IMG/VR virus record: IMGVR_UViG_2548876862_000021
Location: 1-13,456 of that record
Source: a virus
Lineage: Duplodnaviria > Heunggongvirae > Uroviricota > Caudoviricetes
Strand: one strand, 5' to 3'
DNA length: 13,456 bases
Part shown: positions 1-13,456 of the stretch, piece by piece
Position numbering within the stretch: the first letter of the stretch is position 1
How the letters are laid out: each line of letters begins with the position of its first letter
The notes under the pieces: model-generated
Seen by the model: the letters and a program-made list of their open reading frames with translations, nothing else
The model's database searches: none
What the model was told of the DNA's origin: nothing
Program-made: the position numbers and the translations under genes

Positions 1-597
1 CAAAACCGGCCAGAATAATCGGCGCCAGGCGGACTGAGTTATTGTCGTTTCATAGCGCCGGGAACCTGAAGCAATAAGGATTTTGTGATCGCGCATCCAC
101 GCAAACAGTTTGTTTGGACCAATACCAACAACCTTTGCAAAGTTTCCAATCAAAATTCCGCTGGCCTCGCCAACGCGATCGGCAAACTCAACTTTAGGTG
201 CGGCAATTGCGAGCTGGTTTTCCAGTTGCATTTTCTGCTCAGCAAGATCAGCAGCAAGGCGCAACGCTTCCGGTAACGTTTTTGGGATATTAACCGCAGT
301 TTCTTCAAGCTCTCGCCAACGGTCAACAAGACGAGCGGTGAACTCTGGCGACAACTGGGCAACAACGACAATACTGTCTCGCTTACCTTGTTCGCCCTCG
401 AAGACGTAATGCTCGTACTGAACACTGAACCCTAAGTTATTGATTCTTTCGGAAACCTCAATTTGAGGAAGCCGGATAACACCATTTTTAGCCAGCGTTT
501 CGATGGTACGTTTCACATTGTCATGACGCTTACCCACCAACTCAGCGATTTCAATGCTTGTCATTTTGATGGCATTGCCATTTATTAACTCATTCAT
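1..597 (-). CDS. Phage antirepressor, Rha N-terminal domain plus ANT/KilA-C-like C-terminal domain; partial, runs off window start
   Basis: Minus-strand ORF from ATG at 597-595 is open to position 1 (199 codons, no stop), so it is absent from the ORF track. I translated it by hand: MNELINGNAIKMTSIEIAELVGKRHDNVKRTIETL... (Rha-like) and ...GNFAKVVGIGPNKLFAWMRDHKIL... (ANT-like). Start overlaps the ninF-like stop by 8 nt. Confidence 0.6.
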   Translation of the reverse strand, partial: MNELINGNAIKMTSIEIAELVGKRHDNVKRTIETLAKNGVIRLPQIEVSERINNLGFSVQYEHYVFEGEQGKRDSIVVVAQLSPEFTARLVDRWRELEETAVNIPKTLPEALRLAADLAEQKMQLENQLAIAAPKVEFADRVGEASGILIGNFAKVVGIGPNKLFAWMRDHKILIASGSRRYETTITQSAWRRLFWPVL

Positions 598-766
598 CGT
601 CTTCTTCCTCGTACATTGAGCTATTCGGATCGCTCATCAGCTCTGCGCAGCAATCGGAGCATACGTGAACTTCCAGCACATGCAGTTTCTGACCGCAGTT
701 AGCGCACGTTAAAGCTCGCTCGACGCTTTCTTTCTGGTATTGAAGGGATTGGGATGGGCTAAGCAT
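590..766 (-). CDS. ninF: NinF-like small zinc-ribbon protein (58 aa)
   Basis: Hand-translated: MLSPSQSLQYQKESVERALTCANCGQKLHVLEVHVCSDCCAELMSDPNSSMYEEEDDE. Two CxxC-type pairs; start ATG overlaps the upstream stop (TAATG). Position matches ninF in the P22/lambda nin set. Below the 60-aa track threshold. Confidence 0.5.
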   Translation of the reverse strand: MLSPSQSLQYQKESVERALTCANCGQKLHVLEVHVCSDCCAELMSDPNSSMYEEEDDE

Positions 767-1125
767 TATTGGATTCTCTGCATCATGAGAAAGACAATCA
801 TGGCGGCGCGGAGGGGATTTTCATGTATAGCTCGCTTAGATTTACAGTAGGCCACACCGCGTGCACCCCACTCGTCTTCATCGAGATTGATAATGCTAAT
901 CCTGTATTTTTCAATAATCGGCCATGCGTCTGCTGGGTTTGCGCATGGGTTAAAGGAACCGCGCTCAACTTCTACTTCAACTGCGTCTCCGTTTACAATG
1001 TCTCCCTCAAATGAGACAAACACCATATCGCCATTCTCACCTTCTTTGTAATCCGGTGATCCGTTATGAATAGCTTCGAATACAGCCACGTTAATTTCAA
1101 AATCACTTAACTGTGAATAATCCAT
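766..1125 (-). CDS. NinX-like hypothetical protein (119 aa)
   Basis: Track ORF 766..1167; I prefer the internal ATG at 1125-1123, preceded by GAGGAA at about 7 nt and sitting 2 nt after the ninE-like stop. Sits between ninE-like and ninF-like as ninX does in P22. No recognisable catalytic motif. Confidence 0.5.
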   Translation of the reverse strand: MDYSQLSDFEINVAVFEAIHNGSPDYKEGENGDMVFVSFEGDIVNGDAVEVEVERGSFNPCANPADAWPIIEKYRISIINLDEDEWGARGVAYCKSKRAIHENPLRAAMIVFLMMQRIQ

Positions 1126-1127
1126 TG

Positions 1128-1304
1128 TCATTTCCTCGCACGATGTCTTAGCCACCGGATATCCCACAGGTGAGCCGTGTAATTGAAGGTTTTTACGTCA
1201 GATTCTTTTGGGATTGGCTTGGGTTTATTTCTGGAGCGCTTCGTTGGAAGGTATTTGCAGTTTTCGCAGATGATGTCGGTGATACTTCGTCGCTGTCGTC
1301 TCAT
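1128..1304 (-). CDS. ninE: NinE-like small basic protein (58 aa)
   Basis: Within track ORF 1128..1364, start at internal ATG 1304-1302, which overlaps the ninB stop (ATGA coupling). Protein [30 protein letters not shown]... Assignment by memory and position. Confidence 0.45.
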
Positions 1305-1741
1305 GCCGCCCTGTCTCCCCATCTCGCTTTCCACTCCAGAGCCAGTCGCGCTTCGTCTGACCACTTAACGCCATGTTCTGTACCGAATGCCTGTATAAGC
1401 TCTAATAGCTCCGCAAATTCGCTTACACGCATCCTGCTGGTTGACTGGCCTATTACCACAAAGCCATTCCCGGCAAGGTTAGGAACAACATCCTGCTGCT
1501 TTAATGCTGCGGTAAACACACACTTCCAGCTTTCTGCATCCAGCCAGCGACCATGCCATTCAACCTGACGAGAGACGTCACCAAGGCAAGCCCAAAGCTT
1601 TCGATTCTGGTCTAAGCTGCGGTTGCGTTCCTGAATGGTTACTACGATTGGTTTGGTTGGGTCTGGAAGAATTTGCTGTACCGCGTGAATAGCGTTTTGC
1701 TGATGTGCTGGGGATCGAATTTCAAAGGTTAGTTTTTTCAT
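1301..1741 (-). CDS. ninB: NinB (Orf-family recombination mediator)
   Basis: 146-aa [59 protein letters not shown]... recognised as lambda NinB family; same length as lambda NinB as I recall. Confidence 0.8.
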
Positions 1742-1934
1742 GACTTCCCTCTCTAACAGATTTCAGGTTATTCCACTCCGTTACCGCACTGCGATAATTC
1801 GCGGCCGCCACAGCGGCGTGGTTAGCGCAGTAGATTTGGCACCCGTTCTCCATGTCGAATATTGTCGGTGATTTTCCGCATTTACATTTTTTGGCACGCG
1901 GTGCGTCTGAACACATTCCGTTAACGGTGTCCAT
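1722..1934 (-). CDS. Small Cys-rich (putative zinc-binding) protein, nin-region, NinA/NinD-position
   Basis: 70-aa ORF with CxC...C...C pattern (CKCGK, CQIYC); GAGGGGGA Shine-Dalgarno upstream of ATG 1934; 3' end overlaps ninB start by 20 nt. Function not assignable. Confidence 0.5.
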   Translation of the reverse strand: MDTVNGMCSDAPRAKKCKCGKSPTIFDMENGCQIYCANHAAVAAANYRSAVTEWNNLKSVREGSHEKTNL

Positions 1935-1957
1935 CAGGATCCCCCTCGTTCTTAATC

Positions 1958-1990
1958 CAATAAAAAAGGGCTACTGTGTAAATAGCCCCT
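1958..1990 (-). terminator. Intrinsic terminator between helicase and nin genes (tR2-like position)
   Basis: On minus strand GGGCTA-TTTACACAG-TAGCCC stem-loop followed by TTTTTTATT, 29 nt downstream of the helicase stop. Confidence 0.5.
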
Positions 1991-2018
1991 GTTATTAGCT
2001 CAGTGATGTAGATGGTCA

Positions 2019-3455
2019 TCAGAATCCTCCTTTCTTCTTGGACTGCGGCTCCTCGCGTTCACGGCGGCGCATTTCAGCAGACTGTTGGTCTGTGTCATAA
2101 ATAGCGCCATTTGCCTGAATGCAATACACCGTGCCGGTATTGCCATGACGATTGAGACGAAGGATTAGTTCGGTTTCACCAGGTGGAACACTGTCATCAA
2201 AAGCACCTTCACGATGGATCCCCACCCAATAATCGCAATCCTGTTCAATCTGCCCTGTATCGCGCGAGTCACTTGGTAATGGGCGTTTATTGGTTCGGCT
2301 TTCCAATGCGCGGTTAAGCTGTGTCAGAAGCACAACAACGCAATCAAGCTCTTTGGCAAGGTTCTTCAATCCTTTGGTGATCATGCCGTAAGCAAGGTCG
2401 TTGCGATCGGCCTTCTCAGCAGTCATTAGTGTCAGGTAATCGACCAGAATCATGCCAACGCATCCTTTTTCTCGCTTGATTCGACGGCTTTCGCTGACGA
2501 TTTGAGCCAGAGATAATCCCGGCGTGTCGTCGATGTAAAGCATGTCGATTTCACTCAAGCGATTGGCTGTTTCGATCGCCCTGTTGAAGTCACCATCGTA
2601 ATCACCCTGATAGCCGTCATCGGCGTCATTTGTCGCCGGAAGGTAAAAAATATTCGGGTTAACACCAGACTTCTGCCCTACCAGTTTTTCCAGTATCTGG
2701 TCACCTGGCATTTCAAGGCTGAACATCAGAGCGGGCTTTTTCTCATGCACTGCGCAATTGATTGCCATCTGGCTGTATAGCGTCGTTTTCCCCATCTTAG
2801 GGCGAGCGCCAATGACAAACAGAGAGCCTTTCACCAGACCTTTCGGTGACAGCATCCTGTCCAGCGATGGGATCCCTGTGCTCATTCCTCGTTGTTCGCC
2901 TGACGGGTCAAATCGCTTCTCAAGGTCGCTAACCCAGTCTTCCATGACCTCACCAAATGAACGAAGGCCGCGACGCGATCCGGTTTTTGCATGGTCTGTC
3001 AGTTGCGTGAAAATCGACTGAATAGCTTCGTACTTCTGTGTTGCAGTCATTCCGTTGCGGGAATAGAGCAATTCCGTCGCTTCAGTCATGCGGTTGATGG
3101 CGTAGCGTTCCATTGCGGTTTCACGAACCTGCATTGCATAGGCAATGATGTTTGCTGCGCTTGGCGTGTTCTTTGCGATCTCAGCGATATAAGCAAAACC
3201 GCCAACAGACGCCGTTAACGATTTACGCTCCAGTTCATCGAAAAGCGTCAGGCCATCTACTGGCTTTTGCTCCCGGTGCATTCTGGTTATTTCTTCGAAA
3301 AGGATTTTGTGTGGTCGACTGTAAAATGAGTCAGGCTTCAGCATCGCCAGAACCTTCTGGACGCGCTCACTGCTGTCATCATCCAGAAGCAATCCACCAA
3401 TCACCGCCTGCTCTGCCTCGATGCTATGGGGCGGCGCATAAAAATTATCGGTCAT
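2019..3455 (-). CDS. Replicative DNA helicase, DnaB family (P22 gene 12-like)
   Basis: Strong resemblance to E. coli DnaB throughout (PHSIEAEQAVIGGLLLD, Walker A GARPKMGKTT, LVDYLTLM, LTQLNRALESR). Track starts at GTG 3470; I prefer ATG 3455-3453, preceded by GAGGGTG. Overlaps the O-like stop by 11 nt. Confidence 0.9.
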   Translation of the reverse strand: MTDNFYAPPHSIEAEQAVIGGLLLDDDSSERVQKVLAMLKPDSFYSRPHKILFEEITRMHREQKPVDGLTLFDELERKSLTASVGGFAYIAEIAKNTPSAANIIAYAMQVRETAMERYAINRMTEATELLYSRNGMTATQKYEAIQSIFTQLTDHAKTGSRRGLRSFGEVMEDWVSDLEKRFDPSGEQRGMSTGIPSLDRMLSPKGLVKGSLFVIGARPKMGKTTLYSQMAINCAVHEKKPALMFSLEMPGDQILEKLVGQKSGVNPNIFYLPATNDADDGYQGDYDGDFNRAIETANRLSEIDMLYIDDTPGLSLAQIVSESRRIKREKGCVGMILVDYLTLMTAEKADRNDLAYGMITKGLKNLAKELDCVVVLLTQLNRALESRTNKRPLPSDSRDTGQIEQDCDYWVGIHREGAFDDSVPPGETELILRLNRHGNTGTVYCIQANGAIYDTDQQSAEMRRREREEPQSKKKGGF

Positions 3456-4335
3456 CGTGTTCACCCTCACGAACTTTCAGGTAGGTATTATCGTTAAGCA
3501 GGAAATCAAATCCCTTTTTGTGCCAGACGGTTCCGCGCTGATGGTTTGGGCGCTCTTCGAACATCCATCGGCAATTTTCGCCTACGTAGCTCAAATAATT
3601 TCTCCAGTCCTGCATCGTGAAACCATGCCCGTCAAGCTGGCGGGTTATCACTCCGGCTTTGCGCCAGAACGTTCGGATCTGGTTTTTACGCTTGTCATTC
3701 AGTGCGCGGATTCTTGGCGCTTCAGGAAGGATTTCGTGGTAAGCATCGACAACATCCTGACAGCTAACGGAAGGTTTTTTCTTGTCAGACTTTTTGTCTG
3801 CTGTGGCACTCTCTAATACGTCAGTATTAGAGATATTATTTATATTATTGTTTATGGACAACCGTTGGACAACCGTTGGACAATCTCCGCTGAGAGCCGC
3901 GCCATTACTGGTGTTTGCGTTGGACAACCGTTGGACAACCGTTGGACAATTTTTTGCCTGAAAATCGTCATATTTAACGATTGTAAACAGGCTAAATTTC
4001 TTCCCCATCGAGCAAATATTAAGCATACCTTTCGACTCAAAAGTCCGTAATAAGCTCCGAACTTTGTTGTCGGGGATGAATGTTTCTCTGACCAGCGACG
4101 GGCGTCCAGTTATCATCTGACCGCGATCAACAGTTATCGGACCGATATCCGTATTGACGACAGTAGATTCGTGATTAGCCTTGAGGATTAAGTGAAGCCA
4201 AAGATGTACTGCCTGAGAGTCCTTATAGAGCCTGCTGTCCATAAACTGGCGGTGTATAGAGACATACCCCATACTGGATGCCTCCTGATGTTGTACAGGG
4301 TTATGCCTGTAATCAGCTAACTTAACGACGCCCAT
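3445..4335 (-). CDS. Replication initiator, lambda O-like (iteron-binding)
   Basis: 296-aa ORF immediately upstream of the helicase; contains the ori iterons inside its coding sequence (encoded peptide repeat CPTVVQRLSN), as in lambda O; AGGAG 6 nt upstream of the ATG. Confidence 0.75.
   Translation of the reverse strand: MGVVKLADYRHNPVQHQEASSMGYVSIHRQFMDSRLYKDSQAVHLWLHLILKANHESTVVNTDIGPITVDRGQMITGRPSLVRETFIPDNKVRSLLRTFESKGMLNICSMGKKFSLFTIVKYDDFQAKNCPTVVQRLSNANTSNGAALSGDCPTVVQRLSINNNINNISNTDVLESATADKKSDKKKPSVSCQDVVDAYHEILPEAPRIRALNDKRKNQIRTFWRKAGVITRQLDGHGFTMQDWRNYLSYVGENCRWMFEERPNHQRGTVWHKKGFDFLLNDNTYLKVREGEHDDR
3813..3950. repeat. Replication origin: two clusters of three direct ~11-bp iterons (GTTGGACAACC) plus flanking AT-rich stretch
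   Basis: Seen directly: 3856-3884 GGACAACCGTTGGACAACCGTTGGACAAT and 3919-3950 CGTTGGACAACCGTTGGACAACCGTTGGACAAT; AT-rich 3813-3855 (TATTAGAGATATTATTTATATTATTGTTTAT) lies downstream in the direction of O transcription, the lambda ori arrangement. Confidence 0.7.
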
Positions 4336-4483
4336 GTTTCACTCCTGCTTTGGCTAGTCTGTAAACACCAACAAGGCGCTCTGCGAACGCCCTGTTATTT
4401 GCTGCGGCTACCACTAATCCCTCAGGTGAATCAGGGTGTCGAATCTCTTCTTTTTCCTGGTATTTCTTACGACGTTTTGTCAT
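4322..4483 (-). CDS. Hypothetical small basic protein (53 aa) between cII and O
   Basis: Hand-found ORF MTKRRKKYQEKEEIRHPDSPEGLVVAAANNRAFAERLVGVYRLAKAGVKHGRR, AGGAG 6 nt upstream of ATG 4483-4481; 3' end overlaps the O start by 14 nt. Below track threshold. Confidence 0.35.
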   Translation of the reverse strand: MTKRRKKYQEKEEIRHPDSPEGLVVAAANNRAFAERLVGVYRLAKAGVKHGRR

Positions 4484-4517
4484 AATTACTCCTGTGGATT
4501 GATCCAGTCTTTCTACA

Positions 4518-4796
4518 TCAGGCCTCGAAGAATTCGCCGTTCTTCGGGGCTTTTTCTTTTGTCAGCATTCTGGCTACTTTCTTAGCCAGTTCCGCCAACT
4601 CCTCGTCTTCAACACCCCATTCAAGAACAGCCAGAAGCATTCCCATTTTGGGGATGAAGCTATCTTTCCATCGCGAAATTTGCGATTCATTAATCCCTAA
4701 CGCGTCGGCAACCTTTCGCTGACCACGTACAGCAATTCGATTCAGGATGTTGCTTGTAATTGCATTCGCTTTCTTGCGAGTACTTGTAAGTTGCAT
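4518..4796 (-). CDS. cII: cII-like transcriptional activator
   Basis: Track ORF 4518..4883 contains MQLTSTRKKANAITSNILNRIAVRGQRKVADALGINESQISRWKDSFIPKMGMLLAVLEWGVEDEE..., aligning with lambda CII (QISRWK...MLLAVLEWGV). Start set at ATG 4796-4794 so that nutR lies outside the gene. Confidence 0.8.
   Translation of the reverse strand: MQLTSTRKKANAITSNILNRIAVRGQRKVADALGINESQISRWKDSFIPKMGMLLAVLEWGVEDEELAELAKKVARMLTKEKAPKNGEFFEA
4522..4560 (+). terminator. Intrinsic terminator on the strand antisense to the cII 3' end (oop-like)
   Basis: 11-bp stem (GCCTCGAAGAA / TTCTTCGGGGC, one G-U) with 7-nt loop, directly followed by TTTTTCTTTT. Candidate extended -10 (TGtCATAAT, 4478-4486) about 40 nt upstream. 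Confidence 0.5.
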
Positions 4797-4854
4797 ATGT
4801 AAGTATTTCCTTAACAAATAAGAAGTTATGCGCATCAAATTATGCGCGTTGTAT

Positions 4855-4898
4855 TCCCGCATTTCGGCGGGAATGATGACCATGACTGTTAAAGAGCG
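4855..4898 (-). promoter_or_regulatory. nutR-like site: boxA (CGCTCTTTAACA) followed by boxB hairpin
   Basis: Read on minus strand: boxA at 4898-4887, 14-nt spacer, boxB TCCCGC-CGAAAT-GCGGGA at 4872-4855; the boxB 18-mer is identical to the one upstream of N. Confidence 0.6.
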
Positions 4899-4904
4899 GT
4901 GTTA

Positions 4905-5101
4905 CTATTTGTTTTTCTTGTTGCTTGGGAAAGGACGAACTTCCTCTCCAATCACACTGCCATCAGGCTTTACCGTAACCATGATGTTACGGCCTGCCAG
5001 AATGGCCTTGCTGATAGCGCACTGGATTACACCAAAGTCACTGGCTGCTTTAGCCTGTCCATGGATTTTGGCGTAATCGGCAAGTGTCATTCGAATCATA
5101 T
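4905..5101 (-). CDS. cro: Cro-like repressor
   Basis: [62 protein letters not shown] aligns with lambda Cro ([22 protein letters not shown]...PFPSNKK). Track start is GTG 5105; I prefer ATG 5101-5099 with GGAGAG upstream. Confidence 0.8.
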
Positions 5102-5128
5102 GCACTCTCCGTTATTAACCATGAACAA

Positions 5129-5198
5129 AGAATACCACAGGTATTCAAAGCAATCAATACTCAGGGTATTTTTAGTTTAAGTACCTTAGCTATTAGAA
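5129..5198. promoter_or_regulatory. OR region: three 15-bp operators (AATACC-N3-GGTATT) with divergent PR and PRM
   Basis: 5131-5145 AATACCACAGGTATT (perfect palindrome), 5156-5170 AATACTCAGGGTATT (1 mismatch), 5180-5194 AGTACCTTAGCTATT (2 mismatches); centre spacing 25 and 24 bp. PR on minus: -35 TTGATT (5157-5152), 17-bp spacer, -10 TATTCT (5134-5129). Candidate PRM -10 TAGAAT 5193-5198. Confidence 0.65.
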
Positions 5199-5205
5199 TT
5201 AAGCT

Positions 5206-5922
5206 ATGGAAAATAAAAAATCACTGACGACAGAACAGCTCGAAGACGCTAAGCGGCTTAAGGCTTTGTATGAGTCAAAAAAGAAAGAATTGGGAATAAC
5301 CCAATACTCAATCGCTGATGAACTGGGTATCACCCAAGGAGCGGTAGGGCATTATCTTAATGGCAGAAACGCGCTAAACGTTGAGGTCGCATCTGGTTTT
5401 GCACGTTTGTTGCAAGTCTCAATTGCTGATTTTAGCCAGTCAATTGCTGCCAAGGTTGCAGAACAGGCAGAAAGCCTTAAGAGCGATGCCAACGTAAGGT
5501 ATGCAGGGGAATACAGAGCAGGAAAGAGGTATCCGGTGTTAAGCAGTATCCAGGCTGGCTCGTGGTGTGAAGCATGCGAACCATACACCATTAAAGACAT
5601 AGATGTTTGGCTTGAGTCTGACGCGCATATTCAAGGTAATGCGTTCTGGCTTAAAGTGGAAGGTGATTCAATGACGGCACCGGTTGGGTTAAGCATTCCA
5701 GAGGGAACATTCGTTCTTTTCGATACCGGAAGGGAGGCGATCAACGGCAGCTTGGTCATAGCAAAACTTTCTGACTCTAACGAAGCAACATTCAAGAAGC
5801 TGATAATCGACGGCGGAAATAAATACCTCAAGGGACTTAATCCTGCATGGCCTCTCGTGCCAATCAATGGAAACTGCAAGATTATAGGCGTTGCAATTGA
5901 GACAAAACTAAGGCTGGTTTGA
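5206..5922 (+). CDS. cI: CI-type prophage repressor (HTH N-terminal domain plus S24 LexA-like autocleavage domain)
   Basis: 238 aa, collinear with lambda CI ([24 protein letters not shown] / FWLEVEGNSMTAP / FKKLIRD all matched by close variants). No Shine-Dalgarno upstream of the ATG. Confidence 0.9.
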   Translation: MENKKSLTTEQLEDAKRLKALYESKKKELGITQYSIADELGITQGAVGHYLNGRNALNVEVASGFARLLQVSIADFSQSIAAKVAEQAESLKSDANVRYAGEYRAGKRYPVLSSIQAGSWCEACEPYTIKDIDVWLESDAHIQGNAFWLKVEGDSMTAPVGLSIPEGTFVLFDTGREAINGSLVIAKLSDSNEATFKKLIIDGGNKYLKGLNPAWPLVPINGNCKIIGVAIETKLRLV

Positions 5923-5939
5923 TCACGCAAGGGGCGATT

Positions 5940-6308
5940 ATGGTTGGAACCGCTATAGCAAGCTTTTTTGGGATGTTGGCAATCTCGACAATTTACGGCT
6001 TAGCGCATGCTTTTATTGCGAAATCTCTATCAGAAAAAATAAGCCAGGCTTGGGCGCATAGATCAGCTCGTTTCATGATTCTGGTGATCATAGCAATACA
6101 AGGGATATCTGCATTTATCCTCTATGGATCAAGCTTATACCTATTGTATCAAGGCGCGACATTTACGCCTTACACCAGTGATTACGGAACTCTATACGAT
6201 GGTAGTGAAGACATCACTGTGGCTTGGATCGTCTTTGGTTTATCTATGGCCGTGTCTGTTGTAGCAGACATCATTAAGGTAATTCTCGTCTTAACCTTCG
6301 CTGACTAA
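5940..6308 (+). CDS. Small multi-pass membrane protein co-transcribed with cI (rexAB/sieB-position; candidate exclusion or abortive-infection factor)
   Basis: Track ORF 5919..6308 begins at a TTG overlapping the cI stop; ATG at 5940 has AAGGGG about 6 nt upstream. Several long hydrophobic segments consistent with transmembrane helices (AIASFFGMLAISTIYGLAHAFIA, FMILVIIAIQGISAFILYG, VAWIVFGLSMAVSVVADIIKVILVL). Confidence 0.6.
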   Translation: MVGTAIASFFGMLAISTIYGLAHAFIAKSLSEKISQAWAHRSARFMILVIIAIQGISAFILYGSSLYLLYQGATFTPYTSDYGTLYDGSEDITVAWIVFGLSMAVSVVADIIKVILVLTFAD

Positions 6309-6438
6309 CCTATAATCCCGGCAGCAATAGCTATCGGGATCCACTTCACATATCCCGCATAAAAAGCACTGAACAAGCAGACACCGAAAAAATAAATATC
6401 CTTTGTATTCATTTGCTTATCATTATTTCACCAAAAAT

Positions 6439-6480
6439 AAATACCTTGGGTATTTACACAATAAAATACCTACAGTATTC
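6439..6480 (+). promoter_or_regulatory. OL region: two operators of the same AATACC-N3-GGTATT family, with PL
   Basis: 6439-6453 AATACCTTGGGTATT (perfect), 6464-6478 AATACCTACAGTATT (1 mismatch), centres 25 bp apart. Candidate PL -35 TTTACA 6452-6457, 17-bp spacer, -10 TATTCT 6475-6480, the same -10 hexamer as PR. Confidence 0.6.
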
Positions 6481-6526
6481 TTTAGCCATCAGCAGGACGC
6501 TGGAAGCCAAACGGAACAGATTGGCA

Positions 6527-6568
6527 GGCTCTTTAACATTGATGGGATTGTCCCGCCGAAATGCGGGA
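6527..6568 (+). promoter_or_regulatory. nutL-like site: boxA (GGCTCTTTAACA) followed by boxB hairpin
   Basis: boxA 6527-6538 resembles the rrn/lambda boxA consensus; boxB TCCCGC-CGAAAT-GCGGGA at 6551-6568, identical to the nutR boxB; located between PL and N. Confidence 0.6.
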
Positions 6569-6675
6569 ACCAAAGAGTAGTTGGCTTTGGGGTGACGTGA
6601 AGTGCAGCTGCACGACGGCAACCGGAAGATAAGCACCCGGCGCGTCACCGCCAAAGTCAATCATCGGAGGTCAAC

Positions 6676-6975
6676 ATGACAGTAGTCATTACATATCTGG
6701 CTGACGATAACGCCAGAAATCGCCGCAGAGCACGCAGACAGGCTCAACGTGAGCAGGCAATGCAAGAGCAGCGACTGGCGCGAAAAATTGCGCTAAAGCT
6801 CTCTGGTTGCGTCAGAGCAGATAAAGCAGCATCACTCGGAAGCCTTCGCTGCAAGAAGGCAGAAGAAGTCGAGAGTAAACAGAATCGCATTTACTACCGC
6901 AAGCCACGCAGTGAAATGGGTGTGACTTGTGTTGGTCGCCAGAAAATGAAATTAAGCAGCAAACCACTTATTTGA
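6676..6975 (+). CDS. N: N-like transcription antiterminator
   Basis: 99 aa; N-terminal arginine-rich motif (NARNRRRARRQAQREQA); C-terminus RIYYRKPRSEMGVTCVGRQKMKLSSKPLI parallels lambda N (RTWYSKPGERGITCSGRQKIKGKSIPLI); GGAGG 6 nt upstream; directly downstream of nutL. Confidence 0.75.
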   Translation: MTVVITYLADDNARNRRRARRQAQREQAMQEQRLARKIALKLSGCVRADKAASLGSLRCKKAEEVESKQNRIYYRKPRSEMGVTCVGRQKMKLSSKPLI

Positions 6976-6983
6976 GGTGAGAT

Positions 6984-7070
6984 ATGGAAGAAGAATTTGA
7001 AGAGTTCGAAGAGCATCCGCAGGATGTGATGGAACAGTACCAGGACTATCCGTATGACTACGACTATTGA
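6984..7070 (+). CDS. Hypothetical 28-aa highly acidic, aromatic-rich peptide
   Basis: Hand-found: MEEEFEEFEEHPQDVMEQYQDYPYDYDY, preceded by GAGGTGAG. Very short, so coding status is uncertain. Confidence 0.3.
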   Translation: MEEEFEEFEEHPQDVMEQYQDYPYDYDY

Positions 7071-7254
7071 TAAAAATCAATGGTGTGGACAATTCAAGCG
7101 ATGCAATGGATGCAAGCTGCAATCGGAATGCATGGTTAAGCCTGAAGAAATGTTTCCTGTAATGGAAGATAGGAAATATGTCGATAAATGGGCAATACGA
7201 ACGACGGCAATGATTGCCAGAGAACTTGGTGAACTGAACAACAAGGCTGCCTGA
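7054..7254 (+). CDS. Hypothetical small Cys-containing protein (66 aa)
   Basis: Track ORF with C-x5-C-x2-C-x5-C spacing; weak ribosome-binding site; followed by a hairpin plus T-run. Confidence 0.35.
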   Translation: MTTTIDKNQWCGQFKRCNGCKLQSECMVKPEEMFPVMEDRKYVDKWAIRTTAMIARELGELNNKAA

Positions 7255-7290
7255 TGGTGGCCTTTATTTTCTTATTTGAGAGGAATTAAT

Positions 7291-7914
7291 ATGTCATCAA
7301 TCCGCTTAACTACGAGAATGAAAGAGGAAATCGCTCGTAACGCTTTAATTAAGTCTGGGGTTTTCACTGAGCTTGAAGAAGTAACAAAGTTAAAGAACCA
7401 GCTTGCACTTGACGCCAGAGTTATTGCGTTTGGCGGTAAAAAGAAAACTGAGGAAGTGGATCAGTTATCATCCAAGTTGGTAGCTATAAGTGAAGAACTT
7501 GAAAAGATGGGATGTTCATTTTACTCATACGATTTTCGTTCTACTTCAATTTATCTGACTGTATCTGGCAGAAGGGTTGGATGGCATTCATATGGGAAAG
7601 ACGGCAACGGCGAAGATATATTTCCCCCTACTCCAACCAAAGATAAATGCATGTTTGACGCAGAACACGAAATAACAAAAAGGTTTGATGAAATCTGCGC
7701 ATTGCAACAAAAACTTGAAGCCAAGAAAAAGGATATCGAATCAAATGTATGGGCTGCTTTGAACTCAGTCACAACAGTTAAGCGACTTATTGAGGTTTGG
7801 CCTGAAAGCAAAGAATTGCTACCAAAAGAAGCAGATAAAGCAAGTACAGCACTTCCTGCTTTACGGGTAGAAGATTTGAATAAGATGACTGGACTTCCTT
7901 CCGAGGCTGCATAG
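7291..7914 (+). CDS. Hypothetical protein (207 aa), first gene of low-GC cassette
   Basis: Track ORF 7276..7914; start set at ATG 7291 preceded by GAGAGGAA. GC about 38-40% in hand-counted 60-nt samples versus about 48-50% in flanking genes. No recognisable motif. Confidence 0.6.
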   Translation: MSSIRLTTRMKEEIARNALIKSGVFTELEEVTKLKNQLALDARVIAFGGKKKTEEVDQLSSKLVAISEELEKMGCSFYSYDFRSTSIYLTVSGRRVGWHSYGKDGNGEDIFPPTPTKDKCMFDAEHEITKRFDEICALQQKLEAKKKDIESNVWAALNSVTTVKRLIEVWPESKELLPKEADKASTALPALRVEDLNKMTGLPSEAA

Positions 7915-7977
7915 TCGGCCTTTATTTTTAGCATAAACAACAGAATAAACACTGCACTGAATTATTTGAGGTTAGAT

Positions 7978-8448
7978 ATGACAAAATCATGGAGCGTACC
8001 TTTTCCTGAATCAGAAACTGAACATGAGGGAATGCCTGTTTTCTGGAGATTCCAGGCGACAGTTGAAGAAGATGGAATCAAAATATTCGCACTTCAATAT
8101 ATAGCTTTTCATCAGACAGAGCATTATGCATGGTTGGTTCCTGCGCATTGGATTGTTAATTTTAAACCAGCACCAAATCAGTGGTTACAGGAATGGAAAC
8201 AAAAGAGAAATAGATATGCAATTAAGAAAGTAGCAAAAAATGCAGAAAGATCTTTTGCATTCCCAACGAAGAAACTTGCCATTGAGAGTTTATTGCGCCG
8301 GAAGAAATACCATTTAATGAGAATCAAACAAGATTTGGCTGTTGTATCAACTCTTGTTGATGGGATGAAGAATATTGATACATCAACACCAGATATTGAA
8401 TATAACTTTGGGCACAACCAAGAAACAGAAAATTGGGTATTTTATTAG
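7978..8448 (+). CDS. Hypothetical protein (156 aa), second gene of low-GC cassette
   Basis: Track ORF 7966..8448; start set at ATG 7978 preceded by GAGGT. Low GC; no recognisable motif. Confidence 0.6.
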   Translation: MTKSWSVPFPESETEHEGMPVFWRFQATVEEDGIKIFALQYIAFHQTEHYAWLVPAHWIVNFKPAPNQWLQEWKQKRNRYAIKKVAKNAERSFAFPTKKLAIESLLRRKKYHLMRIKQDLAVVSTLVDGMKNIDTSTPDIEYNFGHNQETENWVFY

Positions 8449-8552
8449 TACGAGTAAGCACTATGTATTCATTCCAACGAGTGAATACACGGAGCAATGT
8501 CGCTCGTAACTAAACAGGAGCCGACTTGTTCTGATTATTGGAAATCTTCTTT

Positions 8553-8578
8553 GCCCTCCAGTGTGAGGGCTTTTTTAT
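8553..8578 (+). terminator. Intrinsic terminator downstream of the low-GC cassette
   Basis: GCCCTC-CAGTGT-GAGGGC stem-loop immediately followed by TTTTTTAT. Confidence 0.6.
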
Positions 8579-8642
8579 ATGCATACCAATAACGCTTCAC
8601 TTGAGGCGTTTTCGTTATGCAATCAAATATAAGGAGTTACCC

Positions 8643-8777
8643 ATGATGCACTTTCAGCTCGCGGGTAGCGGCGTCATGTCCGCTTTCTACCCGCACGAAT
8701 CTGAATTATCACGCCGAGTTAAACAATTAATCAGAGCAGCAAAGAAACAACTGGAGGCGTTATGCGCAATGAGATAG
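8643..8777 (+). CDS. cIII: cIII-like small protein (44 aa; FtsH-inhibitor family)
   Basis: MMHFQLAGSGVMSAFYPHESELSRRVKQLIRAAKKQLEALCAMR resembles the lambda CIII core (AIAGWPVAGCPSESLLERITRKLR); AAGGAG upstream. The 79-aa track ORF 8538..8777 is an upstream TTG extension of it. Confidence 0.55.
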   Translation: MMHFQLAGSGVMSAFYPHESELSRRVKQLIRAAKKQLEALCAMR

Positions 8778-8914
8778 CCATCAATCACCAGATGCTTCGT
8801 GCTGCACAGAACAAAGCAGTAATAGCTAGATTTATTGGTGATTCCAAAATGTGGCTTGAAGCAAATAAAGCGATGAAATCAGCTATCAACCTTCCGTGGT
8901 ATCGCAGGAAATGA
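8762..8914 (+). CDS. Kil-like small protein (50 aa), overlapping the cIII-like 3' end
   Basis: Hand-found: MRNEIAINHQMLRAAQNKAVIARFIGDSKMWLEANKAMKSAINLPWYRRK. GGAGG upstream; overlap with cIII mirrors the lambda cIII/kil arrangement. Similarity to lambda Kil is from uncertain recall of an ATFIGDEKMF-type motif. Confidence 0.4.
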   Translation: MRNEIAINHQMLRAAQNKAVIARFIGDSKMWLEANKAMKSAINLPWYRRK

Positions 8915-8989
8915 GTTTTACAGATAACTGGTCAGACGAAGAATTCATTCGTCAGATGAAAGAATTAATCGGTAACGAAGGAGATATTC

Positions 8990-9160
8990 ATGTCACTTGC
9001 AACCACAGTGAAGGAGAGCAAGTTACAGAGACGCATGTACACGCAGAAAGCTCTCTGGTATCGCCATAATGGTGACCGCGAAGGAATGCGGGTATGCCTT
9101 AATTTGTCCCGAGTCGAAGTATTAAATCAGCGTTATTTCCTTGGGCCGTGTCCATTCTGA
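8990..9160 (+). CDS. Hypothetical small protein (56 aa)
   Basis: Hand-found: MSLATTVKESKLQRRMYTQKALWYRHNGDREGMRVCLNLSRVEVLNQRYFLGPCPF. AAGGAG upstream; ends 8 nt before the SSAP gene. Confidence 0.35.
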   Translation: MSLATTVKESKLQRRMYTQKALWYRHNGDREGMRVCLNLSRVEVLNQRYFLGPCPF

Positions 9161-9168
9161 GGTGAATT

Positions 9169-9876
9169 ATGGATTTGAATAAATTCGATGAGCCATTCAG
9201 CCCTGAAGATATCGAATGGCGAATACAGCAAAGCGGTAAAACACGCGATGGCAAAGTGTGGGCTATGGTGCTGGCTTATGTCACGAACCGGGCAATCATG
9301 AAACGCCTGGACGATGTTTGTGGCAAAGCAGGATGGCGCAATGAATACCGCGATATTCCCAACAACGGCGGCGTTGAATGCGGCATATCAATAAAGATTG
9401 ATTCCGAATGGGTAACCAAATGGGATGCTGCTGAAAACACGCAGGTAGAAGCCGTCAAAGGTGGTCGTTCAGGTGCAATGAAGCGCGCTGCCGTTCAGTG
9501 GGGAATCGGTCGGTATCTGTATAACCTTGAGGAAGGTTTCGCACAAACATCTCTCGACAAAAAGCAGGGATGGCACAGGGCAAAACTCAAGGATGGAACA
9601 GGATTTTACTGGCTCCCTCCATCGCTGCCAGGCTGGGCAATCCCAGCATCAGATAACAAACCATCACCAGAAAATACCAACCAGAAATCTCCATCGGTTG
9701 ACTGCGAGCAAATCCTGAAAGACTTCAGCGATTATGCGTCAACAGAAACTGACAAGAAAAAACTCATCGAGCGTTATCAGCGTGACTGGCAATTAATGGC
9801 TGGCAACGAGGAAGCGCAGGCTAAATGCGTTCAGGTAATGAACATCAGAGTTAACGAACTAAAACAGGCGGCATAA
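9169..9876 (+). CDS. Single-strand annealing protein, Rad52/Sak-like
   Basis: 235 aa; region KGGRSGAMKRAAVQWGIGRYLY fits the Rad52-family pattern; stop abuts the SSB start (TAAATG); GAGGTG upstream. Confidence 0.6.
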   Translation: MDLNKFDEPFSPEDIEWRIQQSGKTRDGKVWAMVLAYVTNRAIMKRLDDVCGKAGWRNEYRDIPNNGGVECGISIKIDSEWVTKWDAAENTQVEAVKGGRSGAMKRAAVQWGIGRYLYNLEEGFAQTSLDKKQGWHRAKLKDGTGFYWLPPSLPGWAIPASDNKPSPENTNQKSPSVDCEQILKDFSDYASTETDKKKLIERYQRDWQLMAGNEEAQAKCVQVMNIRVNELKQAA

Positions 9877-10383
9877 ATGGCAAGCAGAGGCGTAAATAAG
9901 GTGATTATCCTTGGTCGGGTAGGACAAGACCCGGAAGTTCGATACTCACCATCAGGAACAGCGTTCGCTAACCTGACAATAGCCACGTCAGAACAATGGC
10001 GAGATAAAAATACTGGCGAGCAAAAGGAATTGACTGAATGGCATCGTGTTGCTGTATCCGGGAAACTGGCTGAGGTCGTGGGGCAGTATGTGAAAAAAGG
10101 TGATCAGATTTATTTCGAGGGAATGCTGAGAACCAGAAAGTGGAAAGACCAGTCAGGACAAGACCGTTACACAACCGAGGTTCATGTCGGAATTAATGGC
10201 GTGATGCAAATGCTTGGCGGCATTGGCGACAGCAAACAACAAGCAGCCAGCAGGCAATCACAGAAGCCACAGCAGCAATCATCACCAGCACAACACAACG
10301 AACCACCTATGGATTTTGACGACGATATACCCTTTGCACCAGTAACTCTCCCCTTCCCTCGTCACGCTATTCACGCAATTTAA
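9877..10383 (+). CDS. ssb: Single-stranded DNA-binding protein (SSB) with a 15-aa extension beyond the canonical DDDIPF tip
   Basis: N-terminus [23 protein letters not shown]..., [14 protein letters not shown] and [11 protein letters not shown] all match E. coli SSB; the ORF continues [15 protein letters not shown] before the stop. Confidence 0.9.
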
Positions 10384-10396
10384 TCAGGAGAAAATC

Positions 10397-10690
10397 ATGC
10401 CAGCGCCTCTGTATTGTGCGGATGACGCGCGCCGCTGTTCCGGCAATTCCGTATCGGAGGTGCTGGATAAATTCAGAAAAAACTACGATCGAATAATGTC
10501 TCTACCGCAGGAAACGAAAGAGGAAAAGGAATTTCGCCACTGCGTATGGCTTGCAGAGAAAGAAGAACGCGAGCGAATTTACCAGACATCAATCCGACCA
10601 TTCCGCAAAGCCACATATACCCACTTCCCTGAAATTGACCCGCGCCTGCGTAATTACCGCTCACGCTATGGCGCTATCAGTAATGACTGA
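10397..10690 (+). CDS. Hypothetical protein (97 aa)
   Basis: Track ORF; AGGAG 6 nt upstream of the ATG. Confidence 0.55.
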
Positions 10691-10700
10691 GGAATTTACC

Positions 10701-10865
10701 ATGAGAGGACTTGCATACAATCCCGGCATTCTTCCGGCAGAAATGATTATTCGCCAACGCGTAAAGCCAATGCCATCGAGAGAGGAATTGCTTAAGAGAA
10801 ATAGTTTCGGTTCTGTTAATGACAACAAATATCTGAATGCGATGTTGCGGAGTGGGAAGAAATGA
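10701..10865 (+). CDS. Hypothetical small protein (54 aa)
   Basis: In-frame ATG inside track ORF 10551..10865, preceded by GAGGAA; stop overlaps the next start (ATGA). Confidence 0.4.
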
Positions 10866-11374
10866 AACAAATGTCACTAATTGAGATGGATGGTTTTCTG
10901 AAAGGTAAATGCATCCCAAGTGATTTAAAGGTTAACGAAACAACCGCTGAATATCTGGTGCGTAAGTTTGGTGAACTCGAATCAAAACTGGAAACGGCGT
11001 TGCGGGAGTGTCGTTCTGCTGGAATCACGATTGACAACCTTGAAGCCAAGTGCGATGCGCTGGCGGCGGAGAATGCGGCACTGAAGGCTGGCGCTATGGA
11101 CGAAATCAAGGTTATCAACCGTGGAGGTCAGGCATATTGCGTAAAAGATGGAGTGCAAGTTAATCCCATGTATGCAAGAGGGTGGAATGACTATCGCGCA
11201 AAGTCTATGCAATCAGACACCCCAGCCACCGATGCTTTCCTGGCTGAAGTTCGGGCGCAGGGCGTGGAGATGGCTATGGAGCATATGCAGTCGAGCGGTT
11301 CGTTAACATTTGGAGATTGCTACATATCACTTAACGAGTTCGCCGCCCAGCTTCGCAAAGGAGGCAACCAGTGA
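10862..11374 (+). CDS. Hypothetical protein (170 aa), predicted coiled-coil segment
   Basis: Track ORF; heptad-like segment [40 protein letters not shown]; translationally coupled on both sides. Confidence 0.6.
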
Positions 11375-11886
11375 GCGAAATTAATTACCAGGCACTGCGT
11401 GAGGCGGCGGAACGTGCAATTCCAGCAATGGAACGCCTGTTAATGTTGCCAGCTGATGATGATTTGTTAAGTGAACAGGAACTTAAAGATTACGGTGTGG
11501 ATATTGATGCGCTCAACGCCTTCAAATTTCTGACCGGACCAGAAACCGTGCTGGCGCTGCTGGATGAACGGGAAAGAAACCAGCAATACATCAAACGCCG
11601 CGACCAGGAGAACGAGGATATTGCGCTAACGGTAGGGAAACTGCGTGTTGAGCTTGAAGCAGCAAAATCAAAACTCAACGAGCAGCGTGAATATTACGAA
11701 GGCGTTATCTCTGATGGGAGCAAGCGTATTGCTGAACTGGAGGAGCGGGAAATACTGCTCCCGGAACGTAGCAGCATGCTTCATCGAACAGATTTTCACG
11801 ATGATTACCAAACGGTAATGGCATACAAAGTTTCTGAAGTCATCGCTGCAATCCGCGTCGCTGGCATTCGCATCAAAGGAGAGTGA
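11371..11886 (+). CDS. Hypothetical protein (171 aa), possibly Ead/Ea22-like
   Basis: Track ORF with GTG start overlapping the previous stop, AAAGGAGG 6 nt upstream; Ead/Ea22-like label is from memory of similar prophage proteins, unverified. Confidence 0.5.
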   Translation: MSEINYQALREAAERAIPAMERLLMLPADDDLLSEQELKDYGVDIDALNAFKFLTGPETVLALLDERERNQQYIKRRDQENEDIALTVGKLRVELEAAKSKLNEQREYYEGVISDGSKRIAELEEREILLPERSSMLHRTDFHDDYQTVMAYKVSEVIAAIRVAGIRIKGE

Positions 11887-11887
11887 T

Positions 11888-12151
11888 ATGGCAACTTTAA
11901 CAAAAAAAGAACGGGCATGGTTGAACGAATTACAGGACGTTCTTGATCGCTGCCCATCACCGAAAAAAATTGGTTTTTACACCATTGGCGATAAAAGCAT
12001 TTACCTGTATGACCTGCGCCGCATGGATGAAATCATGGAGGCTCTTGATAATCGTTCGTCGATGGATTGGTGTGTTGCTGTCCATGATATGAATGCCGGA
12101 TTTGATGAAAGGATTTTGTTCCCCTCATCAGTTGAAAGCACTGCGGGTTAA
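11888..12151 (+). CDS. Hypothetical protein (87 aa)
   Basis: Track ORF; AAAGGAG upstream; 1-nt gap after the previous stop. Confidence 0.55.
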   Translation: MATLTKKERAWLNELQDVLDRCPSPKKIGFYTIGDKSIYLYDLRRMDEIMEALDNRSSMDWCVAVHDMNAGFDERILFPSSVESTAG

Positions 12152-12161
12152 GGAGTAACAC

Positions 12162-12848
12162 ATGACCACTATTACCAAAGAACGTATTGAATTGTTCATT
12201 AAAAATCCGCTTGAAAACGGGCTTACCCGTGGTGAACAAATGGAACTGGCACGGATTGCGCTGGCATCGCTGGAAGCAGATCCAGTTGCTTATATTTTCA
12301 AACATCCGGCCGGGAAATTATTCTGGTCTTTAACGGATGAAAGCAATAAAGAGCAAGCGGACGTTATTCCTGTTTATGCTGCCGCGCCTGCGTCGGTTGT
12401 GCCGGATAATGCATCAGAGCCTCTTGCTTATGCTTACAAAGAGCTTACGCCTGAGATTATGCGCAACCATTTAGCTGTATTCGAGCGATATGGAATAGCC
12501 CCAAACGATAGCTCTACCACAATTCAGGCACTGCGAATCGCGCTGGATGGCATAGAGCGGAGAGACGCCATGCTTCATGGTGCCGAACCTGTAAGCCAAA
12601 CTTACAAGTTGAACCAGCTATCGGGCAACTATCCGGTAACTCCGGATGGTTGGATAAGATGTAGTGATCGAATGCCGGAAGACACCAAAATGTTACTGGC
12701 ATTTAGTCAAGGTGAAATCGTGGCCGCATATTGGAACTGGGTTGTAAATCCAATTGATTACAAAAAATATAGAGCTTTCACGTATTTATCAGGAAATATC
12801 TTGGATGACGTAACTCACTGGATGCCGCTACCAGAGCCTCCACTTTGA
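12162..12848 (+). CDS. Hypothetical protein (228 aa), C-terminal DUF551-like region
   Basis: Track ORF; TAAGGAG upstream; C-terminal ...VTHWMPLPEPPL resembles the DUF551 signature as I recall it. Confidence 0.55.
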   Translation: MTTITKERIELFIKNPLENGLTRGEQMELARIALASLEADPVAYIFKHPAGKLFWSLTDESNKEQADVIPVYAAAPASVVPDNASEPLAYAYKELTPEIMRNHLAVFERYGIAPNDSSTTIQALRIALDGIERRDAMLHGAEPVSQTYKLNQLSGNYPVTPDGWIRCSDRMPEDTKMLLAFSQGEIVAAYWNWVVNPIDYKKYRAFTYLSGNILDDVTHWMPLPEPPL

Positions 12849-12944
12849 AAGCGAAGCTTATACATATCTTTTACATCAGCAATCTATTGTTAATCTCCAA
12901 TCAATGTTACGTTGTCATCTCACTCATGCTTTGGAGGTAGTGAT

Positions 12945-13124
12945 ATGTCTTGTCCAAAATGCGGTTCTGGAAATATTGCAAAAGAAAAAACAATGCGTGG
13001 ATGGTCTGATGATTATGTGTGCTGCGATTGCGGATACAACGACTCTAAAGACGCATTTGGAGAGCGTGGTAAAAACGATTTTGTCAAAATTAATAAAGGA
13101 CGCGAAGGCAACGAAAAAAGCTAA
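12945..13124 (+). CDS. Small zinc-ribbon protein (59 aa)
   Basis: MSCPKCGSGN...CCDCGYN (CxxC...CxxC); GGAGG upstream of ATG 12945. The track ORF 12912..13124 uses an upstream TTG. Confidence 0.5.
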   Translation: MSCPKCGSGNIAKEKTMRGWSDDYVCCDCGYNDSKDAFGERGKNDFVKINKGREGNEKS

Positions 13125-13187
13125 TTTATTTATTCATATATGAAAACAATGTAACCAATATTCGAATTGAAGAACTGAAAGAACACC

Positions 13188-13212
13188 AAGCCGCCTGATG
13201 GCGGTTTTTTAT
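13188..13212 (+). terminator. Intrinsic terminator ending the leftward-operon accessory block
   Basis: CCGCC-TGAT-GGCGG stem-loop followed by TTTTTTATT. Confidence 0.6.
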
Positions 13213-13255
13213 TACCTGATTTGCAGGTTCGATTCCCTATTCGGAGATAGCACTC

Positions 13256-13456
13256 ATGCAACACGAACTACAGCCTGATTCCCTGGTTGATTTGAAATTC
13301 ATCATGGCCGATACTGGCTTCGGTAAAACCTTCATCTATGACCGGATTAAGTTCGGAGACCTGCCTAAAGCCAAAGTTATCCACGGGCGAGCAAGATGGT
13401 TATATCGTGACCATTGTGAATTCAAAAATAAGCTCTTAAGCCGCGCCAATGGGTAA
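13256..13456 (+). CDS. Excisionase / AlpA-family DNA-binding protein (probable Xis)
   Basis: 66 aa; ...MADTGFGKTFIYDRIKFGDLPKAKVIHGRARWLY... fits the AlpA/excisionase pattern; GGAGAT upstream; stop at the last base of the window. Confidence 0.5.
   Translation: MQHELQPDSLVDLKFIMADTGFGKTFIYDRIKFGDLPKAKVIHGRARWLYRDHCEFKNKLLSRANG

Follow-up and report, generated by a model that had tools for sequence, protein, structure and literature searches.

We analysed a 13,456 nucleotide (nt) stretch of DNA from a Caudoviricetes virus (IMG/VR record IMGVR_UViG_2548876862_000021, positions 1 to 13,456; this whole stretch is referred to as the window), with the emphasis on two small overlapping open reading frames (ORFs), orf28 and ral, which encode 28 and 66 amino acids (aa), respectively. 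The genes in this part of the window are on one strand in the order cI, a small membrane ORF, N, orf28 and ral, which is the order of the lambdoid PL operon, and the following features were located:

6676 to 6975, plus strand: N antiterminator gene of the phage-21 type, 99 aa, recognised from the ORF list and a weak Pfam N_peptide match.
6974 to 6980, plus strand: strong Shine-Dalgarno sequence of orf28 (GAGGTGA), 3 nt 5' of the ATG at 6984.
6984 to 7070, plus strand: orf28, gene for an acidic, aromatic micro-protein of 28 aa with an ATG start, recognised from the ORF, homology and selection.
7042 to 7045, plus strand: Shine-Dalgarno sequence of ral (AGGA), located inside orf28 codons Q20-D21 and 8 nt 5' of the ral ATG.
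7054 to 7254, plus strand: ral, gene for the restriction-alleviation protein Ral, 66 aa, recognised from PF11058, PHROG 1055 and identity to lambda Ral.
7243 to 7274, plus strand: terminator-like hairpin AAGGCTGCC-TGAT-GGTGGCCTT followed by a T-run, from a consensus scan.

Phage lambda has existing annotations for both ORFs. The larger one, of 66 aa, matches Pfam family PF11058 (Ral) over residues 1-66 of 66 with 154.7 bits (cut-off 25) and PHROG 1055 ('restriction alleviation ral') with E = 3.5e-47; it is 95% identical to lambda Ral, and RefSeq labels its counterpart in E. coli prophages that are near-identical here an 'antirestriction Ral family protein'. The 28-aa ORF has 100% aa identity to P22 orf28 and to that of lambda (lambdap47, UniProt Q38269; J02459, complement of 34271-34357), is annotated in the DE3 record as 'orf28; similar to lambdap47', and matches PHROG 16060 ('unknown function') over positions 1-28 of 28 with E = 7.1e-19. 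There is no doubt that these ORFs are Ral and lambda orf28, and since both are textbook lambda features, no new element is added to the catalogue. At least 182 contigs in public databases carry the exact orf28 sequence, labelled as hypothetical (lambda accession AAA96576.1), and the orf28 DNA is found in 878 of 5,426 complete E. coli genomes; in the E. coli chromosome rows inspected, the PGAP annotation had no feature under the orf28 match, and a plasmid search gave lambda-like records only. Literature searches with orf28, lambdap47 and the peptide sequence returned only strain tables, where orf28 is part of strain names ('delta orf28-ral', PMC2327257), and a CRISPR interference (CRISPRi) essentiality table, where it is listed as non-essential (PMC10695390); a functional study of orf28 or a mention of its translation was not found in these searches. 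What is new here is the purifying selection on orf28, its conserved core across genera, its persistence without ral, and a lineage in which it is linked to Lar.

The orf28 product is MEEEFEEFEEHPQDVMEQYQDYPYDYDY, a peptide with a computed mass of 3.7 kDa and a net charge of about -12, containing eight Glu, four Asp, one His, two Phe and five Tyr residues and neither Lys nor Arg, with Glu at positions 2, 3, 4, 6, 7, 9 and 10. The TGA stop of N (6973-6975) extends into the orf28 Shine-Dalgarno sequence, and a GAGG-type purine-rich element is found at the equivalent position in diverged homologues, in otherwise different surrounding sequence. The upstream N gene (6676-6975) is 97% identical at the DNA level to the genes annotated as N in the phage 21, DE3 and HK544 records. 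The initial annotation of the window had described the 28-aa ORF and the overlapping 66-aa ORF at these positions, their location directly after N and early in the PL operon, the good Shine-Dalgarno sequence, the absence of basic residues other than a single His, and a cluster of four Cys residues in the larger ORF; our analysis agrees on each of these, while the 13 acidic residues given there need to be lowered to 12. It had missed the identities of both genes, as given by the PF11058 match and the 100% aa identity with lambda orf28, but its interpretation is supported in part, by the anti-restriction setting of the genes and by the conservation of the reading frame in related prophages, the lack of which it had named as one of two refuting outcomes and which is documented below.

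Loci were collected via Ral (approximately 190) and with a degenerate DNA pattern that describes the core of the peptide (approximately 150), both ascertainment schemes being biased towards intact copies of the bait gene. The orf28 frame is intact in approximately 98% of 192 Ral-ascertained loci, with as exceptions a stop at codon 4 (locus L037), one allele ending after 19 residues and one 5' deletion. Among 121 unique nucleotide sequences, and outside the ral overlap, 20/23 third positions are variable versus 19/46 first and second positions (Fisher p = 3e-4). The summed pairwise ratio of nonsynonymous to synonymous polymorphism (pN/pS) is 0.14 in the orf28 frame, where synonymous sites are saturated, while the two shifted frames have ratios of 4.8 and 1.9. 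The wobble bias and low pN/pS span codons 2-19, and are thus found outside the ral signals. In diverged homologues the frame is kept, the lengths of all insertions and deletions are divisible by three, and the predominant exchanges are E/D and F/Y, as can be seen from the homologues in Providencia (MEEDIEEFDEHPDDDMRQYQDYPYEYDY), Pantoea (MDEEEFDEHPADDMSQYQDYPYEFDY), Erwinia (MEEFDQHPDDDMSQYQDYRYEY) and Kluyvera (VEDEFDEHPDDDMSRYQDYPYDH). A core of [DE]F[DE][DE]HPxD[DEV]Mx[QRK]YQDY is kept in all four genera, and the C-terminal YPYDYDY is variable or missing in intact homologues. With such patterns, we are confident that the orf28 peptide sequence is under purifying selection and that orf28 is a genuine protein-coding micro-gene. 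Other candidates in the same region did not hold up: the antisense ORFs at 6952-7122 and 6894-7016 were rejected as the sites that vary are at positions 2 and 1 of their codons, and a 9-bp hairpin around the orf28 stop, which is made of the Ral codons TID/NQW, is conserved in neither Pantoea nor Erwinia. The RNA fold of the orf28/ral region is unremarkable (local z = -1.69), and no conserved structure was found in it (alifold -0.69 kcal/mol).

The substitution data also bear on the simplest explanation of this region, namely that orf28 is a mere spacer ORF that hands ribosomes on to ral, or remains untranslated, with its conservation stemming from the embedded ribosome-binding site of ral and from recent recombination. 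The invariant ral Shine-Dalgarno sequence (CAGGA) and ATG are embedded in orf28 codons 20-24, the nearly identical lambda and P22 DNA at orf28 resembles a mosaic block, and Citrobacter-type phages use a different upstream ORF, all of which would suit a spacer. However, the wobble-biased substitution and low pN/pS cover codons 2-19, beyond the ral signals, the shifted frames lack a wobble bias and have pN/pS of 4.8 and 1.9, the variable sites of the antisense ORFs are at codon positions 1 or 2, and orf28 is intact and wobble-biased where ral is gone (see below), which makes a spacer the least credible of the explanations considered here, with hardly any probability left to it.

The composition of the peptide had led the initial annotation to suggest a DNA mimic or an inhibitor of host nucleic-acid enzymes, in the manner of Ocr or ArdA, with the carboxylates imitating the DNA backbone in the groove of the enzyme. 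The net charge (about -12 over 28 residues, with none of them basic), the early position of the gene and the adjoining anti-restriction genes are in line with such a role, as is the predicted helix in the N-terminal 20-25 residues, which is modelled with low confidence in a natural orf28-Ral fusion. Known DNA-mimic proteins are folded, about twice the size of orf28 or more, and often dimeric, and against these a peptide of 28 residues is short. Moreover, the conserved residues of orf28 are mostly aromatic or hydrophobic (F8, H11, P12, M16, Y19, Y22) and show no periodic carboxylate pattern, while searches with the peptide matched no Pfam family and no PDB chain at E <= 10, and no NCBIfam family was found for either orf28 or Ral. 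Ral itself has been reported to stimulate methylation rather than to act as a mimic (PMC3874165). The comparisons, in which no homology to Ocr, ArdA or a solved structure was found, speak neither for nor against the specific proposal in the initial annotation, and direct mimicry or nuclease inhibition of this kind is in our view improbable.

A second form of mimicry was considered and rejected. The tip of the SSB tail is an acidic tail which ends in a hydrophobic-Pro-aromatic sequence at a free C-terminus (DDDIPF-COOH). In orf28 the DYPY sequence is internal, and the C-termini vary in intact homologues (ending in YQDYED or YQD). The window does encode an SSB (9877-10383, plus strand), in which the canonical tip DDDIPF is followed by a 15-residue C-terminal extension, so that the Phe which normally carries the free carboxylate is internal.

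The link of orf28 with ral is close. In the phage collection orf28 is found in 117 records and Ral in 119, with near-perfect co-occurrence, and in every ral-containing locus seen, the orf28 stop is close to the ral ATG, from 5 nt upstream to 17 nt downstream of it, with the overlap in the window being 17 nt. The ral Shine-Dalgarno sequence CAGGA and the ATG lie within orf28 codons 20-24 and are invariant in 12/12 diverged ral-containing loci examined. With the ral signals inside the last orf28 codons, ribosomes finishing orf28 would be delivered to the ral start, and we infer that the two genes are translationally coupled. The terminator-like hairpin at 7243-7274 contains the ral stop codon in its loop, the same hairpin is found directly 3' of the orf28 stop in ral-less loci, and the phage L record has a terminator annotated at the equivalent place.

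The main rival of a trans-acting peptide is a cis-acting role of the acidic N-terminus. According to this explanation orf28 is a leader in which MEEEFEEFEE pauses or destabilises the ribosome, in a way that EttA counteracts and that depends on Mg2+ or the energy state, thereby setting the flow of ribosomes to ral or to the terminator and tuning downstream expression to host physiology. In E. coli, acidic runs in the first 30 residues pause or abort translation, and MgtL makes use of this (PMC11282234; bioRxiv 10.1101/2021.02.02.429294). Residues 2-10 of orf28 include seven Glu, this acidic part tolerates E/D swaps and changes in length and yet remains acidic, and the orf28 stop either overlaps the ral start or, in ral-less loci, abuts the terminator stem (TGA-GGCTGCC...). 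However, the most conserved part of the peptide is HPxDxMxxYQDY and not the acidic run, which is left unexplained by charge-driven destabilisation, and the alifold analysis found no conserved RNA structure that links orf28 to the ral start. In lambda, N antitermination overrides terminators, and N should thus already override the one at this location. We therefore see a cis-acting leader as unlikely, albeit the most serious of the alternatives.

What sets orf28 apart from a coupling device is that it is also found where ral is not. Among evaluable lambda-type loci, ral is deleted or truncated next to an intact orf28 in 14/114, and a usable ral is missing beside an intact orf28 in 12/25 evaluable diverged loci (11 absent, 1 frameshifted). 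These ral-less loci have at least four different junctions: orf28 ending in YQDYED and fused to the terminator (L237, L333, L336 and L351), a different terminator (L332), an orf28 ending in DYEN (L350), and a fourth group with the order N, 62-aa ORF, 77-aa ORF, orf28 homologue and terminator. In a number of loci (L028, L210, L212, L213, L261, L265, L283, L303, L311 and L319) an internal deletion of approximately 100 nt between GGACAAT and GGGCAAT in ral leaves MTTTIDKNQWCGQYERRQ followed by a stop codon; this deletion is recurrent in several backgrounds, always with an intact orf28.

In the fourth junction group, the 77-aa ORF overlaps the orf28 homologue by 14 nt and is a member of the Lar family (PF14354, 36.6 bits with a cut-off of 28.6), with 30% identity to the Lar/RalR protein of Rac. 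Lar has been described as functionally analogous to Ral (King and Murray 1995, as cited in PMC6158711). All nine close relatives of the 77-aa Lar gene (9/9, from loci 83-99% identical) carry an orf28 homologue, in which 13 of the 16 variable sites are at codon position 3 and the other three at position 2, with position 1 unchanged (binomial p = 1e-4). From this pattern of substitution and gene content, selection keeps orf28 in place in the absence of ral, and restriction-alleviation genes of two unrelated families are found next to it; since orf28 is intact and wobble-biased where ral is gone, it is more than a coupling leader for ral. In the same lineage, a hydrophobic 28-aa ORF (MISTGNYIFGWLVIGVLMGLGFIAGGNG) is located after the terminator (L228, 3435-3521, minus strand), with equivalents in L321-L329, and is kept in several of these loci.

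Selection on the aa sequence of orf28, together with its survival where ral is deleted, makes a trans-acting peptide the most likely form of action, and we regard this as probable, if by a modest degree. As to its target, the orf28 peptide is identical in lambda, 21-type and P22-type phages, whereas their N proteins differ and their Ral proteins are only approximately 70% identical, which argues for a host target over a co-evolving phage partner. The same comparison counts against the possibility that orf28 modulates N, with the acidic peptide binding the arginine-rich N protein and adjusting its activity or stability. There is some attraction in this, as orf28 is found directly after N, or within one or two genes of it, in nearly all contexts including the ral-less ones, and the N protein of the window has a net charge of about +15.5 versus about -12 for the peptide. 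However, identical orf28 peptides accompany N proteins of the lambda, 21 and P22 specificities without co-variation, sieB separates N from orf28 in lambda and P22 with orf28 still abutting ral, and the gene upstream of orf28 in L343 is not N-like, so that modulation of N is very improbable, slightly more so than mimicry of DNA. A stretch resembling the 3' end of the N gene (TTTACTACCGCAA.CCAC-TATTT.AGGTGA) is present upstream of orf28 in lambda (L001, ~1490-1524) and P22 (L029, ~680-712), compared with 6900-6983 of the window; the alignment is gappy, and weakly suggests an ancestral order N-orf28-ral into which the sieB segment was inserted later.

Taken as a whole, the best explanation of the locus is an orf28-ral cassette in which orf28 specifies a trans-acting acidic peptide and is also coupled to ral, a reading of which we put the chance of being right at about evens. 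In this cassette, transcription of the PL operon reaches orf28 and ral directly after N, orf28 has its own strong ribosome-binding site, and the terminating ribosomes would be passed to the ral start. The very acidic and partly helical peptide would then bind a conserved host protein or protein complex early, and may share a restriction-alleviation pathway with Ral and Lar. An anti-restriction role for orf28 is suggested by its gene neighbourhood, and is put forward as a tentative assignment only.

Several observations weigh against this explanation. The case for translation of orf28 is one of sequence comparison, and neither a binding partner nor a fold nor a homologue of known function was found with Pfam, PDB, NCBIfam and the AlphaFold2 (AF2) model. 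Knock-down of orf28 by CRISPRi gave no plaque defect, on a host without a functional type I system, while ral in that study became conditionally important when the type I system of the host was active (PMC10695390). In a few phages ral is accompanied by a broken orf28 (the stop at codon 4 in L037, and an allele with a stop at codon 20), and in Citrobacter-type phages (L198 and L200, both at 2304-2504) ral is preceded by an unrelated 66-aa ORF (MAKITFGFC...) with an ATGA overlap, for which no Pfam or NCBIfam family was found, and so Ral is not strictly dependent on the peptide. The orf28 genes of lambda and P22 are 97% identical at the nt level versus 74% for ral, which reflects in part mosaic recombination and not selection alone. 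Finally, the association with Lar is confined to one lineage and hence is a single evolutionary event, and the Rac lar gene, when checked for an acidic neighbour, has none, being followed by rcbA which is not acidic.

Natural fusions of orf28 and Ral are present in assemblies, represented by P0001 (76 members), and by the rare P0006 (89 aa, 5 members) and P0011 (85 aa, 1 member). As read from their sequences, orf28 residues 1-20 appear to be joined to full-length Ral through the loss of 1 nt in CAGGAC, and the complete orf28 to Ral from W10 through a short deletion. These fusions may be real alleles or assembly errors, and were not used as evidence of interaction. The single-sequence AF2 model of the P0001 fusion has a helix over residues 2-25, with a low-confidence predicted local distance difference test (pLDDT) score of 66-74 over residues 1-20, and with an overall pLDDT of 52 is too poor to show docking.

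The Ral protein of the window has the family features W10-C11, C17-x2-C20 and C26, and the C-terminal helix WAIRTTAMIARE according to the alignments. Its four Cys residues (positions 11, 17, 20 and 26, C-x5-C-x2-C-x5-C) are invariant or nearly so in the family, and a metal site at this location is plausible. The window copy has G40R (window position 7171) at a nearly invariant Gly in a predicted beta-turn, found in 2/121 unique sequences, as well as K60E and Q61L, and with these substitutions may be impaired. The Ral family is narrow, with 76 clusters which are all at least 61% identical, and all named ones are from Enterobacterales. The AF2 model of Ral (pLDDT 70.6) shows a beta-hairpin and a long helix at the C-terminus, with low confidence in the Cys region; it gave no fold match in the PDB (best E = 2.3), and a PDB sequence search gave no solved structure of Ral or a relative. 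According to reviews, Ral makes type IA enzymes such as EcoKI methylate unmodified phage DNA rather than cut it. Restriction alleviation was originally reported as 800-fold (PMC3874165), versus little alleviation with a ral-only construct (PMC9410887).

A scan of genome contigs gave mostly ral genes close to that of lambda (approximately 95% identical to the window), which were seen in assemblies of, for instance, Nocardioides, Paenibacillus, Pseudoxanthomonas and Shewanella (L004-L020 and others), often on short or low-coverage contigs, and ral in assemblies of such unrelated bacteria was taken to be contamination with lambda DNA. With regard to the wider gene order, ral in the window is directly followed by an Nmad5 gene (nucleotide modification associated domain 5, PF18757, 236 bits; 7291-7914, plus strand), at the place where lambda has ea10. 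No Rfam family was found anywhere in the whole window.

The consequence for lambda is that it carries a selected, ral-independent 28-codon gene at the head of its PL operon, and this gene may bear on the discrepancy between the little alleviation obtained with the ral-only construct and the 800-fold reported. As a more speculative extension, to which we attach a lower likelihood than to an anti-restriction role as such, orf28 could be the founding member of a family of acidic anti-defence peptides of approximately 25 residues, with type I restriction-modification enzymes or some other conserved nuclease of the host as the target in trans; it could be an independent effector, or serve both Ral and Lar as a co-factor. 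Such an activity would explain why orf28 is retained both beside two unrelated restriction-alleviation genes and alone.

When compared with known systems, the closest is lambda itself, where orf28 (lambdap47) has the identical 28 aa, and the same position over the ral start and Shine-Dalgarno context, although lambda has the sieB segment between N and orf28, whereas in the window orf28 directly follows a phage-21-type N. The window Ral shares the four Cys residues and the WAIRTTAMIARE helix with lambda and P22 Ral, and differs by G40R, K60E and Q61L. The Lar/RalR protein of Rac (PF14354) is unrelated in sequence to Ral and the window has no Lar gene, but in one phage lineage Lar overlaps the orf28 homologue where ral would be. 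Phage T4 provides a precedent for size, as its Stp is an early anti-restriction peptide of 26 residues which acts on the type Ic enzyme EcoprrI; both Stp and orf28 have fewer than 30 residues, and Stp shows that such small peptides suffice, but Stp is not known to be acidic and has no sequence similarity to orf28. Ocr and ArdA are much larger folded proteins to which no homology of orf28 was found, and the conserved positions of orf28 are mainly aromatic or hydrophobic. What orf28 has in common with Ocr and ArdA is the extreme negative charge, early expression and anti-restriction neighbourhood (PMC9410887). Acidic leaders of the MgtL type are, like orf28, short ORFs with an early acidic run that are coupled to a downstream gene or terminator (PMC11282234; bioRxiv 10.1101/2021.02.02.429294), but orf28 differs in having a conserved core that is not acidic and in being kept in front of several kinds of downstream sequence.

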